Part shown: positions 42,760 to 48,341 of the stretch, one piece after another
Position numbering within the stretch: the first letter of the stretch is position 1
Layout of the letters: the number at the start of each line of letters is the position of its first letter
Source: Escherichia coli
Lineage (GTDB): Bacteria; Pseudomonadota; Gammaproteobacteria; Enterobacterales; Enterobacteriaceae
Strand: one strand, 5' to 3'
Assembly: GCF_016903815.1 (NCBI RefSeq)
Contig: NZ_CP069973.1
DNA: 64,000 nt
Position numbers and translations under genes: made by a program
Notes under the pieces: generated by a model
The model's database searches: none
What the model was told of the DNA's origin: nothing
What the model saw: the letters and a program-made list of their open reading frames with translations, nothing else

Positions 42760-42834
42760 GTCCTCTTAGTTAAATGGATATAACGAGCCCCTCCTAAGGG
42801 CTAATTGCAGGTTCGATTCCTGCAGGGGACACCA
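42760..42834 (+). tRNA. argW: tRNA-Arg (anticodon CCU)
   Basis: 75 nt. Acceptor stem GTCCTCT pairs with AGGGGAC. The anticodon loop is ctCCTaa. T-arm is GCAGG-TTCGATT-CCTGC. The 3' end is an encoded ACCA. Confidence 0.95.
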
Positions 42835-42995
42835 TTTATCAGTTCGCTCCCATCCGTACCAGTCCGCAAAATCCCCTAAATATCAAGCCTTCCGTAGATT
42901 AACAGTTCGTCATGGTTCGCGTCAGATCGTTGACAGCCGCACTCCATGACGGGTAAAAAGTGGATAAAATAATTTTACCCACCGGATTTTTACCC

Positions 42996-44153
42996 ATGCT
43001 CACCGTTAAGCAGATTGAAGCAGCAAAGCCGAAAGAAAAACCATACCGCCTACTCGATGGTAATGGCCTGTACCTTTATGTCCCTGTGTCAGGGAAAAAG
43101 GTATGGCAGCTTCGCTACAAGATTGACGGTAAGGAGAAAATCCTGACTGTCGGAAAATATCCGCTTATGACTTTGCAGGAGGCAAGGGATAAGGCATGGA
43201 CTGCGAGGAAAGACATCTCGGTTGGCATCGATCCGGTAAAAGCGAAAAAGGCTTCGTCTAACAACAATTCCTTTAGTGTGATTTACAAGGAATGGTATGA
43301 GCACAAGAAGCAAGTCTGGTCAGTAGGCTATGCAACTGAACTTGCAAAAATGTTTGATGACGACATTTTACCTATCATCGGCGGCCTTGAAATTCAGGAT
43401 ATTGAGCCTATGCAACTGCTGGAAGTAATCCGCAGGTTTGAAGATCGCGGTGCAATGGAGCGAGCCAACAAAGCACGCAGAAGGTGCGGCGAGGTTTTCC
43501 GTTACGCTATTGTCACCGGCAGGGCTAAATATAACCCGGCACCTGACCTTGCTGACGCCATGAAGGGATACCGCAAGAAGAACTTCCCGTTTCTTCCAGC
43601 AGACCAGATCCCGGCATTCAACAAAGCACTTGCAACATTTTCAGGAAGTATCGTATCGCTCATTGCGACCAAAGTTTTACGCTACACAGCCCTAAGAACG
43701 AAAGAGCTTCGTTCCATGCAATGGAAGAACGTCGATTTTGAAAACAGGATTATCACCATCGACGCCAATGTGATGAAGGGACGCAAAATTCATGTGGTCC
43801 CGATGTCAGACCAGGTGGTTGAACTTCTCACTACGCTAAGCTCAATCACCAAACCAGTCTCAGAGTTTGTTTTTGCCGGGCGCAACGATAAGAAGAAGCC
43901 AATCTGCGAGAACGCGGTATTGCTTGTGATCAAACAAATCGGCTATGAAGGTCTGGAAAGCGGTCACGGATTCAGGCATGAATTCAGCACAATTATGAAC
44001 GAGCACGAATGGCCTGCTGACGCTATTGAAGTGCAGCTGGCACATGCCAACGGCGGATCTGTGCGCGGTATTTACAACCATGCTCAGTATCTCGATAAGC
44101 GCAGAGAAATGATGCAGTGGTGGGCGGACTGGCTTGATGAAAAGGTGGAGTGA
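42996..44153 (+). CDS. intS: prophage tyrosine integrase (IntS-like)
   Basis: The ATG at 42996 gives MLTVKQIEAAKPKEKPYRLLDGNGLYLYV (385 aa), essentially the K-12 CPS-53 IntS as recalled. Catalytic motifs RYTALRTKELRS, HGFRHEF and RGIYNHAQY are present. Confidence 0.93.
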   Translation: MLTVKQIEAAKPKEKPYRLLDGNGLYLYVPVSGKKVWQLRYKIDGKEKILTVGKYPLMTLQEARDKAWTARKDISVGIDPVKAKKASSNNNSFSVIYKEWYEHKKQVWSVGYATELAKMFDDDILPIIGGLEIQDIEPMQLLEVIRRFEDRGAMERANKARRRCGEVFRYAIVTGRAKYNPAPDLADAMKGYRKKNFPFLPADQIPAFNKALATFSGSIVSLIATKVLRYTALRTKELRSMQWKNVDFENRIITIDANVMKGRKIHVVPMSDQVVELLTTLSSITKPVSEFVFAGRNDKKKPICENAVLLVIKQIGYEGLESGHGFRHEFSTIMNEHEWPADAIEVQLAHANGGSVRGIYNHAQYLDKRREMMQWWADWLDEKVE

Positions 44154-44269: not shown

Positions 44270-44926
44270 TTATGAACTATAATAAGTCCTAATCTTTACA
44301 GATGAAAGCATAATCTTCCAAGCTTGATCGCTACCCAACCACTCATCGTTGGTTGGTTCATTATCACCAGATACTACATAAGTATCTGGCATATCAAAGT
44401 CTATATTGCAAAGGTCTTCTCCTTTGCGCTCCTTAAAAATAAGAAGATCTATTTTTGTTGTTGGGAATTTTTTATCCAAAACACTTCTCAGTTTATACAC
44501 AGCATCTCGTTCTGCATTCAATCTAACGAGTAAAACACGTTCCGACTCATTGATTTTCTCTATAAATCTTTTTCTTCTCGCCTTTATTTTTTTCATCATA
44601 TTAAACAAGCAGACTTCAATACCTTGTTTTTCATAGTCATCAATAAGAATATCGTGAATACTTCGAAATCCAGTCGCTGTATCTGTGATATCAATACAAT
44701 TTTTAAATCTGCCATTAATTTTTATATTTTCAGGCAAGAAAAGGTGGTCGCACCCCTTATTAATTATTTTTGTAACTTGAGGTAGTTTTTGAGAGGCAAA
44801 CCAATCAAATGGTCCACTAAATGTCCTCAACCCAAATCGCTTTAACCTTCCTGCTGGTTGACATTTTTTACCAAGGCTTGCTATAAAATCATACTCTCCA
44901 CAAGGAAGAAAAAGGCCTTTATTCAT
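44270..44926 (-). CDS. moron gene 1: cytoplasmic DUF1796-like (putative papain-fold) protein, function unknown
   Basis: The ATG at 44926 follows AAGGA and gives MNKGLFLPCGEYDFIASLGKKCQPAGRLKRFGLRTFSGPFDWF (218 aa). The SLGxxC...GLRxxSxPFDW pattern is what I recall for Pfam DUF1796. No signal peptide. About 33% G+C. Confidence 0.6.
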   Translation of the reverse strand: MNKGLFLPCGEYDFIASLGKKCQPAGRLKRFGLRTFSGPFDWFASQKLPQVTKIINKGCDHLFLPENIKINGRFKNCIDITDTATGFRSIHDILIDDYEKQGIEVCLFNMMKKIKARRKRFIEKINESERVLLVRLNAERDAVYKLRSVLDKKFPTTKIDLLIFKERKGEDLCNIDFDMPDTYVVSGDNEPTNDEWLGSDQAWKIMLSSVKIRTYYSS

Positions 44927-45043
44927 ATGATTTTCCTTACATTTTATGACGACAAAAATCATAACATTGCCTTATTAATCAGTCAAACAGTTAACAAATG
45001 CAAACAAACAAGTAAGCACATTGTTGATAATTTGTTTATTTTT

Positions 45044-45658
45044 ATGTTTTTGTTATCTATACCATTTTTTTCATTTGCTTCTGATACAAACAAAACGCCA
45101 CCATATCGCATGAGGGAGTCGATGTTTGAGTTATTAAAGGAGCAAAGGGATATTGTTATGCTTGGCGATAGCATAACCGCGCGAGGAGAGTGGAATGAGC
45201 TTCTTCCTAGTTTATCTGTAGCAAATAGGGGCATTGGGGGAGATGAAGTTAAATTTATGAAAAGAAGGATTGATTCTATATTTTTATTAAAGCCCAAATA
45301 TGTATTCATTATGGGCGGAACAAATGATTTCAGAAGAAAAAGAAGTGTTGATGATGTGGTTCGTGACTATAAGCATATAATAAAAAAACTACACAAACAC
45401 AGAATTAATGTATTCATTCAGTCCACCCTTTACGTGTCAAGAGAAAGCAGGTTAAATGACAACATAAAAATATTAAAATTAAACAATGCAATAAATAACT
45501 ATTGCTCTGTATCTAATTATTGTCGTTTCGTAGATCTTAACGTGCACATGGCAAAAGATAGAAAAATACTAGCTAAGTATAGCGATGATGGAGTCCATCT
45601 AAATGGTAATGGGTATTTAATGTGGGCGTCAATCATATACCCTTTAATTAAAAAATAA
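45044..45658 (+). CDS. moron gene 2: exported SGNH/GDSL-family hydrolase (esterase/acyl-transfer fold)
   Basis: All four SGNH blocks are present: I MLGDSITARGEW, II NRGIGGD, III GGTNDF, V DDGVHLNGNGY. The N-terminal hydrophobic segment (NL)FIFMFLLSIPFFSFA|SD is a signal peptide or signal anchor. The start is ambiguous: ATG at 45044, or ATG at 44927, which adds 39 aa. Confidence 0.75.
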   Translation: MFLLSIPFFSFASDTNKTPPYRMRESMFELLKEQRDIVMLGDSITARGEWNELLPSLSVANRGIGGDEVKFMKRRIDSIFLLKPKYVFIMGGTNDFRRKRSVDDVVRDYKHIIKKLHKHRINVFIQSTLYVSRESRLNDNIKILKLNNAINNYCSVSNYCRFVDLNVHMAKDRKILAKYSDDGVHLNGNGYLMWASIIYPLIKK

Positions 45659-45777: not shown

Positions 45778-48177
45778 TTATTTTAGTATCCATCCGGTAT
45801 TTCCTGTTCCTGTTTTTTTTTGATACCAATCACCATTATAATCAATGTACATTGACCCCTGAGGTGCGGTCACAACACCCTCAGGTGAACCGGAGCCTCT
45901 ATAAATTCCAAAGAGAGTTGTACCTCTTACTTTCTCGTATGCAAACAACAAACCATCTGAAGCCCTTCTGATACGCAACGGTTCGTGCTCTGAGTCCGAT
46001 GCAAATGTAGTGGTGCCGTTTGAATCTGTTTCCCTGGAAAAACTTCCATCTGTTCTTGTTCCTTCAATGATCGAATTTGGGTAGTTTGGATCATCAGATG
46101 AATGTAACCTAATATAGGAACTATTTGATGCTGATACCCCCCTACCCCTTAAAATCAATCCCTTAAATGATGACGTAAATAGTGCCTGGATTGAGCCATA
46201 AACAGTGTTATCACTACCGTTTTGCTGATCGTATATTCTTAGTCTTGAGCTATTATCATACATAATAGCGTTGAAGTACTCACCAAGACGTTCGCTAAAT
46301 GCAACAATATTAAAAGCATTGCGCCATCTAAATGATATATTTCGCCCGCTTTCTCCGGCATCTACACCTGCATTACTTGAAGCATTGGTTATGCCAGAAT
46401 TAAGGTTCTGCTCATCGTTGTTACCAGTCGCTGGTCGTATAGAGTAAATTGTCTTTTTCTCAAGAGAATAGCTACTTCCCCATCCATAATCTGTATCAGG
46501 ACTCCAGTCTCCAGAATTTGCATCCTTGGTTGTTTCCACCCAATAAGAGCCATTTGATGGAGGAACACCAATTATTCCAGAAGTCTCAATAGATGATGCA
46601 GCCCATCTTCTTCCACGCCAGTTTACAATATTAGCTCCTGCCCTCCATGTTTCTATGCAGCTTATAATTATTTCTTCGCCACGAATAGTTAAACCTTCCG
46701 GCTCGAATCTGGCTGGATTCCCAAGAGTTGGATGGTTAAGCAACCCATCGCGCCCATATTGCGACCTTGCATCATCGATATCTAATTTTCTTAGTAAATT
46801 ACCTGTTAAATCATATGTAAAGATATGATGCTTTCCAAAAGCATTAGTGCCTCCCTTAAGTATATGTATATATCTTCCATCAGACGCAATACCTTGTACA
46901 GAGTAAGCGCCTTCAGAAGGTGAGTCGCTCATTTCCCAAACAAACATGGGGTTTGCTAATGTTTTATCTTCAAGTTTATCAATTGATATTTTATCGTATA
47001 TAAATACAGTTCGTTTAGCGGCATCACTCTTTGGTGTATTAACCATTATTAAAAGACGACCGTCAGAAGAAATGGCAATTCCTGCACGATTGTAATCTTG
47101 AAATGGGTGACCGCTACCAGTAATCCCCCATACATTATAACTTTTTACGTCAGACTGAGTTGTTCCTGCCCCTCGCCAAGTTATTTTACTAAACCCTTTG
47201 CCTGCAGACTCCCCATCTTCACCTGAATTGGTTACACTTGATGTATATAAATATACTTGACCATTCTCCACCATGGCAGAAAGATCAAATCCGTGCCCAA
47301 GGTTTAATTCTGGAGAATACGCAACATGGTTTACTACCCTTCCATCATCATAAAGATTAAACTCAACAATACGAACTCTTTCTTTATCCGACCAGGTTGG
47401 CCCAACAGGCCGTTGTGTGACAAATAGTTTTTCAATGCCATTAACACGGCAATATGCGATCCCCTGTAACGCATTTCTGGCATTAGGATAAATTTCTGTG
47501 TTTGTTTCTCCCTGAAAACCAAAAAAAGGTTCCATCATTTTTCTCTGCGCAAGTTTGTCAGTTTCAAGTAGACGAGAAACGGAAATAAGAGAGCCATTAT
47601 CTGCAACAATCCTCCCAATACCTCGAGCAGAAGATACATCAACTTCGAGAGTATTTACTGCAAAATCGCCATCAGGAACAAACATTCTATAGCCTGCGTT
47701 AGAGAATGCCTCAGTAGCGTCAGTTATTCCATCACTGATAGCCCCCCAACCGCGAACATCTTTGTCATCACGCCATCGTGCAATCTGCAATTCGGGATAT
47801 TTTTTAGCACCATCCGGGTCTTCTAACTGCTGCCGTAGCTGATCCGGGTCATACTTCAGCACATTAGGGAAATAGAACTGCTGAGTGCCATATGCATCAT
47901 ATACAGCCATAGAATGGCCTTGAACAGTTACGAATTTGGCAATCTGCCCGTTATATACCGGATATCCAGCAGCGTTAATGATGATTGGCTGCGAAACAGG
48001 AACATGAGAGCCGTCTTCGTTCTCTACATAAACCTGAATCTGGTTTTCTGGACTTACCGGGTCAGTGTCAATTTTTCCGATATAAATTTTGCCGTTGGCT
48101 ACTGCTTTAAAAGAACGCGCCATAGTGAAGAGTTGCGAAGGCATACTCACTACAACATTGGCTGTAATGTCTGTCAT
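45778..48177 (-). CDS. tailspike: P22 gp9-type N-terminal head-binding domain fused to an unrecognised receptor-binding/depolymerase part
   Basis: 799 aa. aa 1-113 ([40 protein letters not shown]...NVLKYDPDQ) match the P22/HK620/Sf6 head-binding domain as recalled. The remainder is AT-rich and not recognisable to me. Confidence 0.9.
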
Positions 48178-48341
48178 TTAATTTTCTCCAGACGTAGCAA
48201 TGCGGAACAAGATGCAACTTGCCCGGCATTGCATTAATGTAAGTTATGATTTGTTAACTATGAGATGAGTCTATGCAAAAAGATCTGTTGAATATTGCGT
48301 TCTATATATTTGGTTTTTGCACATTTCTGGTGTTTGCAAAG

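Follow-up and report, generated by a model that had tools for sequence, protein, structure and literature searches.

The stretch of Escherichia coli DNA analysed here (the window; 64,000 nucleotides of contig NZ_CP069973.1, assembly GCF_016903815.1) carries a P22-like (Lederbergvirus) prophage at tRNA-Arg(CCT), with argW as its integration context, and the list of open reading frames places its tailspike gene at 45778..48177 on the minus strand (799 aa plus stop). The gene order is that of P22-like phages, with the spike gene at the end of the late operon after three injection-protein genes; two upstream ORFs of 665 and 462 aa have their counterparts in the 683R2 and Gally 'DNA transfer proteins', and an integrase gene and the tRNA-Arg lie downstream. 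An SGNH esterase-like gene adjoins the spike gene, a DUF1796 gene is also adjacent, and the two accessory genes downstream of the spike form a stretch of 32-34% G+C. A promoter and terminator scan around the spike gene returned nothing above chance. Within the gene, G+C content is 43.7% in the head-binding part and 41.0% in the remainder (window mean 49.6%), and third-position G+C drops from 42% to 28% between the N-domain and the rest. The fall after the junction mentioned in the preliminary description is thus present, but the distal value of about 35% given there was too low.

The first 113 residues (47839..48177, minus strand, as are all features below) form the head-binding, or virion-attachment, domain that had already been recognised by eye: PF09008 (Head_binding) matches aa 1-113 over its full length with 222.5 bits (cut-off 24, E 1e-66), and aa 1-118 match the tailspike N-domains of Sf6 gp14 (E 3e-64) and P22 gp9 in the PDB. 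Because DNA similarity to Sf6-type spikes (88.7%) stops at gene nucleotide ~339 (codon ~113), the junction is as sharp as claimed, and the unfamiliar part, for which a 10-residue starting string had been quoted, does begin at aa 114 (nt 47838). A second junction lies further inside, with aa ~114-155 forming a separate short linker module. This linker or neck (aa ~114-148, 47734..47838) matches the spikes of CUS-3, phiv205-1 and the K1F/K5 type: aa 114-159 share 76-78% amino acid identity with the spikes of CUS-3 and phiv205-1, aa ~114-155 share ~75% DNA identity with K1F/K5/CUS-3-type spikes, and the linker matches residues 214-278 of PDB 9vvr_A (E 6e-13).

The cassette that is exchanged between phages begins at about aa 134-149 and opens with a small β domain (aa ~149-205, 47563..47733; AF2 strands at model residues 36-86), which is where the cassette shared with the spike of A0 34/86 starts (aa ~149). 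This domain contains a motif that begins with 'GA.', at which related family members score on the Pect-lyase-like family PF12708. It is followed by a predicted five-bladed β-propeller 'platform' (aa ~206-582, 46432..47562), with the inner-strand motifs QGIAY238, GHGFD294, AGIAI364, QGIAS428 and EPEGL492. All motifs quoted in the preliminary description are found (a 22-residue segment at aa 140, QGIA at 238 and 428, SDGR at 371 and 432, EPEGL at 492, and the C-terminal motif at 774), and its suggestion that the repeats represent blades agrees with the model, where they fall on the innermost strands of the propeller. Blade 5 carries an insertion of ~55 aa (aa ~513-569, 46471..46641), seen as a gap in the pairwise alignment with Bacillus phage GA-1 gp12, which lacks it; the insertion, which includes segments of 13 and 11 residues, is conserved among the Gram-negative relatives. 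The β-rich distal domain that comes next (aa ~583-725, 46003..46431; AF2 strands at model residues 509-612, pLDDT 71-90) is conserved across the family and occupies the position of the phi11/P68 'tower'. The C-terminal module (aa ~726-799 plus stop, 45778..46002; pLDDT below 50) ends in a 26-residue motif and stands where most relatives have a Peptidase_S74 chaperone; the C-termini of relatives show either this end motif or PF13884. Its 'GTGNTGW' end is common to the spike and to the relatives P0003, P0005 and P0008, and the motif recurs up to five times in large unrelated proteins, in which no Pfam domains were found. Searched as fragments, the blade-5 insertion, the distal domain and the C-terminal module gave no Pfam match. 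AF2 modelled a single chain, and the final ~70 residues of the model cannot be relied upon.

Sequence comparison identifies the cassette as a homologue of GA-1 gp12, which aligns over the propeller and the following domain (BLASTP E 1e-53, 26% identity over aa 209-659; Foldseek E 5e-44, TM 0.61) and keeps Q238, H295, K327, W334, D372, D395, Q428, E492 and E494. GA-1 is a phi29-like phage of a Gram-positive host, and its gp12 differs in its N-terminal anchor, in lacking the blade-5 insertion and in ending in a Peptidase_S74 intramolecular chaperone, which is found in 10 of 14 aligned relatives and is absent from this spike. In its predicted fold, a five-bladed platform closed by an N-terminal strand, the cassette also matches the teichoic-acid-binding receptor-binding proteins of the staphylococcal phages phi11, 80alpha and P68. 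At the sequence level, likeness to this PF21311 group (phi11 Gp45, 80alpha, P68 gp17 and NF5; PDB 5efv, 6v8i, 6iab, 9m7x) is marginal: PF21311 scores 16.5-16.9 bits, below its cut-off of 23.7, and reaches E<0.05 in one of 14 family members, while hhalign to phi11 plus P68 gives E 1.6e-4 at a probability of 50% and lines up the GHG, QGI and FEPEGL motifs. The phi11-group proteins come from phages of Gram-positive hosts, bind GlcNAc on ribitol-phosphate teichoic acid, and possess a coiled-coil stem, iron-containing in phi11, where this spike has a P22 head-binding domain and linker; where they have two repeated 'tower' β domains, the model predicts a β-rich region at aa 583-725, with 70 low-confidence residues at its end. 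The family is large (clustering at 50% identity gives 644 clusters at E<=1e-3, 111 of them at E<=1e-30), and the spike matches phrog_16355 over its full length and phrog_19921 at E 3e-35. Against PDB sequences, single-sequence and profile searches with the distal part found only 9vvr for the linker and, via relatives, S74 chaperones, the profile search missing phi11 and P68; no family in Pfam (whole part or sub-fragments) or NCBIfam scored above its threshold; and the spike has no match to a CAZy-type or esterase family.

Among spikes of P22-like phages, P22 gp9, Sf6 gp14 and HK620 gp9 share the N-domain (E 1e-44 to 3e-64), the gene position and, presumably, the trimeric state. Their distal parts, however, are right-handed parallel β-helices that cut O-antigen, a fold that the prediction for this spike does not show, whereas here we find a predicted propeller whose occurrence does not track O type. 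CUS-3, a K1-specific prophage of the P22-like group, shares both the head-binding domain and the linker (76% over aa 114-159) with this spike and has a propeller-containing distal part. We take its spike to be adjoined by neuO, a capsule-modifying accessory gene, at the position that the SGNH esterase-like gene occupies here. The CUS-3/K1F endosialidases combine a six-bladed GH58 sialidase propeller with a β-barrel insert, a stalk and an S74 chaperone; endosialidases have no sequence match to our distal part and only a weak fold likeness (phi92 endosialidase, Foldseek E 5e-6). The preliminary description was right that this is a modular spike, its distal part being unrelated to the catalytic domains of P22, Sf6, HK620 and CUS-3. 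A literature search for propeller tailspikes in coliphages found nothing relevant, nor did one for the receptor of Gally.

The cassette occurs in 43-44 of 5426 complete E. coli genomes and in three phage contexts, namely the argW prophage, Gally, described as integrating in front of torS, and another prophage with a different 192-aa N-terminus. Its carriers span O102, O83 and O11 (typed via PGAP wzy/wzx names), and copies that are 98-100% identical at the DNA level are found in all three, although their O-antigen gene clusters differ. Going by this typing, carriers of three O types led us to reject any one O-antigen as the receptor, though the three may share an epitope; the O-antigen substrate implied in the preliminary description is not supported, the near-identical copies tracking one capsule locus instead. 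Many carriers come from one O102 clone, presumably ST405.

Of 39 listed carriers (four more lie outside this list), 35 hold one and the same group 2 capsule locus (kps region 2), which is present in just 60 of the 5426 genomes (Fisher p ~1e-69, relatedness of genomes ignored); 25 of the 60 locus-bearing records are outside the listed carriers, one of them a second LF82 record. The pattern also holds within O83, where six of the seven locus-bearing records are listed carriers, the seventh being that second LF82 record, and none of the 28 records without the locus carries the cassette. The occurrence of the cassette is thus tied to the K locus rather than to the O type, as expected of a capsule-specific tailspike. 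Situated between kpsFEDUCS and kpsTM, the locus contains a gene for a CDP-glycerol glycerophosphotransferase; the O83:K24:H31 probiotic strain A0 34/86 has it at 100% identity, and we refer to it as K24-like. K24 contains α-Kdo. We take it to contain glycerol phosphate as well, as judged also from gene content rather than from a structure. The four carriers without this locus are three WCHEC strains, from Chengdu (a location confirmed for WCHEC4533 only), which have an E. coli B-type region 2 instead, and WW2.

A related spike of the same family, P0014 (36% identical), provides a second case. It is found in exactly five genomes, which are exactly the five with another kps region 2 of the CDP-glycerol-transferase type, and a hexapeptide acetyltransferase gene adjoins it. 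The five carriers may be one lineage. The E. coli B-type capsule locus (that of WCHEC4533) was considered as the partner of P0014 and discarded, P0014 carriers being without it.

On this evidence we consider it probable that the protein is a capsule-specific tailspike that recognises a group 2 K24-type capsule through its propeller. Like the N-domains of P22 and Sf6, aa 1-113 attach the presumably trimeric spike to the tail, and the short linker common to capsule-specific coliphage spikes joins this anchor to the exchangeable cassette. The receptor would be the K24-type capsule and not O-antigen, that is, an acidic polymer with Kdo and, by its biosynthesis genes, probably glycerol phosphate, and it is this glycerol phosphate, read from the genes, that would make it teichoic-acid-like. 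The polymer may be held in the polar central cavity of each propeller, lined by Q238, H295, Q428, E492 and E494 as putative counterparts of the phi11 cavity residues, and through binding the short tail would reach the outer membrane. According to the phi11 paper, a putative sugar cavity of that protein contains Gln165, Thr211 and Gln330; in the hhalign alignment, Q428 aligns with Gln330 and G294-H295-G296 with G208-H209-G210, while Q238 is paired with Gln165 by motif only and Thr211 is replaced by F297.

Whether the domain would also cut the polymer, at a phosphodiester or Kdo linkage, or bind it alone is in our analysis an almost evenly balanced matter, with a slight lean towards cutting, since every capsule-specific podovirus spike so far characterised is, to our knowledge, a depolymerase (examples are the K1F and CUS-3 endosialidases and the K5 lyase). 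A version of the capsule reading in which the domain is a pure adhesin that binds reversibly without cleavage appears rather unlikely, though it is the strongest of the alternatives. The structures nearest to the domain belong to receptor-binding proteins for which enzyme activity has not been reported, phi11 Gp45 and P68 gp17 being thought to bind teichoic acid reversibly; the conserved cavity residues are those proposed to hydrogen-bond sugar in phi11; and no family-specific acid/base residues were found beyond those in phi11 and P68. The 'different enzymatic specificity' proposed in the preliminary description is not supported: the fold is that of the phi11/P68 receptor-binding proteins, for which no enzyme activity is described, and no catalytic signature was identified. 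Besides the precedent of the known capsule-specific spikes, it speaks against a pure adhesin that a short-tailed virion must cross the capsule, that the next-best structural neighbours, glutaminyl cyclase and GH43/62/32, have their active sites in the same central cavity, and that a His and two Glu do not vary between family members from such distant hosts as Bacillus and E. coli. Phi11 and P68, for which no enzyme activity is known, have nearly all of the family-invariant residues too, so their invariance is in itself no argument for catalysis.

It seems improbable that the co-occurrence with the K locus reflects merely the shared ancestry of a few clones, the receptor being something else, such as the LPS core, ECA or an outer-membrane protein. 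Prophages are inherited vertically, the association test ignores phylogeny, and four carriers lack the K24-like locus. Yet no fewer than three phage backbones or adaptors carry the cassette, which occurs in two or more integration contexts and in hosts of three O types, with one K locus bar those four exceptions; the divergent P0014 is matched one to one in the same way with a different K locus, and the linker is that of K1- and K5-specific spikes. Very unlikely, finally, is an endoglycosidase of the P22/Sf6/HK620 kind with a new O-antigen substrate: O-antigen is the classical receptor of P22-like phages, anchor domain and gene position are typical, and carriers are strongly enriched in O102 and O83, but near-identical cassettes sit in hosts of three O types, carriage within O83 follows the K locus, and the distal part, which shows no β-helix, matches none of the known O-antigen hydrolases, lyases and esterases.

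By sequence, the same protein is already present in two known phages, where it is uncharacterised. Over aa 114-799, it is 100% identical to the tailspike of vB_EcoP-683R2 (URC09351.1), which also shares the downstream esterase, a hypothetical gene and a CPS-53-type integrase, and 99% identical to that of Gally from E. coli LF82 (CAH1189517.1), where an Mnt/immI-like region lies upstream of the spike gene and the genes downstream are others. Both are annotated only as 'tailspike', the sequence and literature searches found no characterised homologue with a known substrate, the kind of hit that by the preliminary description would remove the novelty of the distal part, and the papers mentioning Gally or 683R2 did not study the receptor or fold of the spike.

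With its phi11-type propeller, the spike would represent a third kind of architecture among P22-like spikes, beside the β-helix and the sialidase propeller. A K24-type receptor would be the first to be predicted for Gally, which is the most active prophage in LF82, a Crohn's-associated strain, and likewise for a prophage common in the multidrug-resistant O102 lineage, and would make the spike a candidate reagent to type or strip K24-type capsules. More tentatively, the GA-1 gp12/phi11-type propeller could be a cross-phylum module for polyol-phosphate polymers, that is, for teichoic acid and teichoic-acid-like group 2 capsules; Gram-positive phages would then use it on wall teichoic acid, and coliphages, P22-like ones among them, would have taken it up for such capsules (K24 and its relatives), each variant matched to one K locus. 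In its strongest form, the module may be a capsule depolymerase of a new class, a propeller that acts as a phosphodiesterase or cleaves at Kdo, with the invariant His/Glu/Glu cavity as its catalytic centre, in which case the 'binding' platforms of staphylococcal phages might be enzymes as well. The parallel between teichoic acid and teichoic-acid-like capsules offers a testable claim on the movement of receptor-binding modules between very distant phages, and the approach taken here, in which the spike cassettes of prophages are compared with the K loci of many genomes, can provide receptor assignments for further orphan spikes.

The tailspike gene (45778..48177, minus strand) encodes 799 amino acids, the first 113 of which are a full-length match to the Pfam Head_binding family (E 1e-66) and also match PDB structures of Sf6 and P22 tailspike N-domains (E 3e-64 to 2e-44). 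The preliminary description placed a sharp junction behind this domain, and this is borne out at the DNA level, where the similarity to Sf6-type spikes (88.7%) ends at gene nucleotide ~339, that is, codon 113 (query position 461-471), as does the similarity to many P22-like phages. It missed a second module: codons ~120-155 show ~75% DNA identity to the spikes of K1F-, K5- and CUS-3-type phages, 76-78% protein identity to those of CUS-3 and phiv205-1, and a match to residues 214-278 of the solved spike 9vvr_A. Anchor and linker of the spike can be read directly from these matches. The cassette that travels between phages starts behind the codon-113 junction, roughly at aa 134-149. A distal part with 97% identity also occurs in the probiotic strain A0 34/86, where the N-terminus to which it is joined (192 aa) is unrelated and the prophage has its genes in another order. 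The G+C content does fall behind the N-domain, from 43.7% to 41.0% (third positions, 42% vs 28%), but not to the ~35% first described; for comparison, G+C is 51% in the adjoining virion genes and 49.6% over the window. The stretch that is really AT-rich (32-34% G+C) is a pair of accessory genes downstream, between spike and integrase.

The distal part (aa 114-799) is covered by no curated family in Pfam, NCBIfam or Pfam searches with sub-fragments, its sole, sub-threshold match being PF21311, the "phage 5-bladed beta-propeller receptor-binding platform" (16.5 bits vs a cut-off of 23.7). It has 26 close homologues in one database and, in an exhaustive search, 644 homologue clusters at 50% identity, 111 of them with E<=1e-30. 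Their N-terminal adaptors are diverse (P22 head-binding, T7 tail-fibre N-domain, tail-collar), and at the C-terminus most carry a Peptidase_S74 chaperone, absent from the spike described here. For an AlphaFold2 model built from 14 sequences (pLDDT 76, pTM 0.71; reliable except for the last ~70 residues), Foldseek ranked NF5, 80alpha, phi11 and P68 highest (E 1e-10 to 1e-12) and, among predicted viral structures, GA-1 gp12 first (E 5e-44), a protein with clear sequence homology to the distal part (E 1e-53). The motifs quoted in the preliminary description were all found in place, and of its two readings of the repeats, as blades or rungs, the first agrees with the predicted fold, where the strands form five groups of four whose innermost strands hold QGIAY, GHGFD, AGIAI, QGIAS and EPEGL. 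Profile-profile comparison with phi11 Gp45 and P68 gp17 brings GHG, QGI and F.E.EG into register (E 1.6e-4, probability 50%). From these structural ranks, the GA-1 gp12 homology, the strand groups and the motif register, we conclude that the distal part is a propeller platform of the phi11/P68 type; a beta-helix was rejected in its favour. In phi11, Gln165, Thr211 and Gln330 line a central cavity proposed as the sugar site. The aligned counterpart of Gln330 is Q428, Gln165 is matched to Q238 by motif only, and Thr211 is replaced by F297 at the aligned position, directly after the conserved motif with His295.

Blade 5 carries an insertion of ~55 residues (aa ~513-569; 46471..46641, minus strand), which the Gram-negative relatives conserve but GA-1 gp12 lacks. 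The aromatic pattern of the insertion, W..G..W......G..P.....YW, is reminiscent of small carbohydrate-binding modules. Pfam found no match in the window copy of this insertion; CBM_5_12 scored somewhere in one of the 14 aligned members. The C-terminal module (aa ~726-799; 45778..46002, minus strand; GSPEG...GS.Y......W..K.G.GNTGW) is also present, in up to five copies each, in large unrelated proteins (P0126, of 3821 aa, P0154, P0156 and P0161), in which no Pfam domains were found. The family C-terminus alternates between this GNTGW-type module and the S74 chaperone.

P22-type injection-protein genes lie upstream of the spike; downstream follow the SGNH/GDSL esterase-like and DUF1796 genes and a CPS-53-type tyrosine integrase (42960..44153, plus strand) adjoining the integration site, tRNA-Arg(CCT) (42760..42834, plus strand). 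The host genes to the left (1..42.7 kb) are presumably in K-12 order, with ORF sizes that fit hisP-hisJ, purF and fabB. Layout and spike are identical in vB_EcoP-683R2, and the spike of Gally, the active prophage of E. coli LF82, is 99% identical. The protein is thus already deposited, uncharacterised: both copies are annotated only as "tailspike", and the papers mentioning these phages do not address its fold or receptor, although one reports 6-40-fold induction of the Gally spike region in macrophages. The gap between the spike and the last injection-protein gene is only 164 bp (48178..48341). In Gally this position holds three additional genes, an Mnt repressor among them, as it does in the prophage of the related spike P0014; the window prophage therefore lacks this immI-like region.

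Among 5426 complete E. coli genomes, 44 contain cassette DNA, 43 of them at full length. Judged by NCBI wzy/wzx names, carriers belong to O102 (at least 17), O83 (6 listed) and O11 (STEFF_1), which makes a single O-antigen unlikely as the receptor. Four genomes have two copies (NZ_CP195804.1, NZ_CM142668.1, NZ_CP166713.1 and NZ_CP182182.1); in the first, 19AR1724 (O83), one copy is 100% identical to the window, a variant otherwise found in O102 strains.

The cassette co-occurs with a capsule locus. In NRG 857C (O83:H1), kps region 2, between kpsFEDUCS and kpsTM, holds genes for a cytidylyltransferase-like protein, a "GT29" protein, a CDP-glycerol glycerophosphotransferase and a TPR protein. 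A 3.6-kb segment of this region is present in only 60 of the 5426 genomes, and 35 of the 39 listed carriers are among these, with the O11 strain and every O83 carrier included (Fisher p ~1e-69, ignoring the relatedness of genomes). Of the seven O83 records that have the locus, six are listed carriers and the seventh is a second LF82 record; of the 28 that lack it, none is a carrier. The locus is present at 100% identity in A0 34/86, the Colinfant strain, whose serotype is O83:K24:H31. The K24 capsule is counted among those with alpha-pyranosidic Kdo; we take it to be a Kdo/glycerol-phosphate polymer, which agrees with the genes of the locus. Of the four exceptions, three are WCHEC isolates of O102 (WCHEC4533 comes from Chengdu), in which the E. 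coli B type has taken the place of this region 2. This replacement (genome L014, NZ_CP028589.2, 813971..819422) is identical to the IS1-disrupted locus of E. coli B/BL21 and encodes a CDP-glycerol glycerophosphotransferase, a cytidylyltransferase/SDR fusion and, oddly for a capsule locus, an annotated "phage baseplate protein". In NRG 857C (L018, NC_017634.1), an ISEc39 transposase (3093772..3094980) lies between kpsS and region 2.

Another P22-type spike from this propeller family, P0014 (36% identical, S74 end), occurs in exactly five genomes. In one of these, MS 16-3, kps region 2 likewise includes a CDP-glycerol glycerophosphotransferase gene, and this region 2 is present at full length in those five genomes and no others.

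By inference, the spike would recognise K24-type capsule in the central cavity of its propeller. That it might also cleave the polymer can be argued both ways: to our knowledge, the characterised capsule-specific podovirus spikes are all depolymerases, the cavity is where structurally related enzymes have their active site, and His295, Glu492 and Glu494 do not vary between phages of Bacillus and of E. coli; on the other side, phi11 and P68, known solely as binders, conserve these residues too. Searchable literature yielded neither a phi11-type platform on a P22-type anchor nor a link of this family to teichoic-acid-like capsules; the spike as such belongs to the known modular tailspike kind. 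Where this prophage carries its SGNH/GDSL esterase-like gene (44858..45658, plus strand; Pfam E 5e-21; annotated in 683R2 as the shorter 45122..45658), the longer ORF of which begins with a hydrophobic, signal-like N-terminus, and its DUF1796 "papain-like" gene (44270..44962, minus strand; E 8e-16), other P22-like prophages have O-antigen- or capsule-modifying genes, and a hexapeptide acetyltransferase gene follows P0014. The two genes may modify the capsule of the lysogen.
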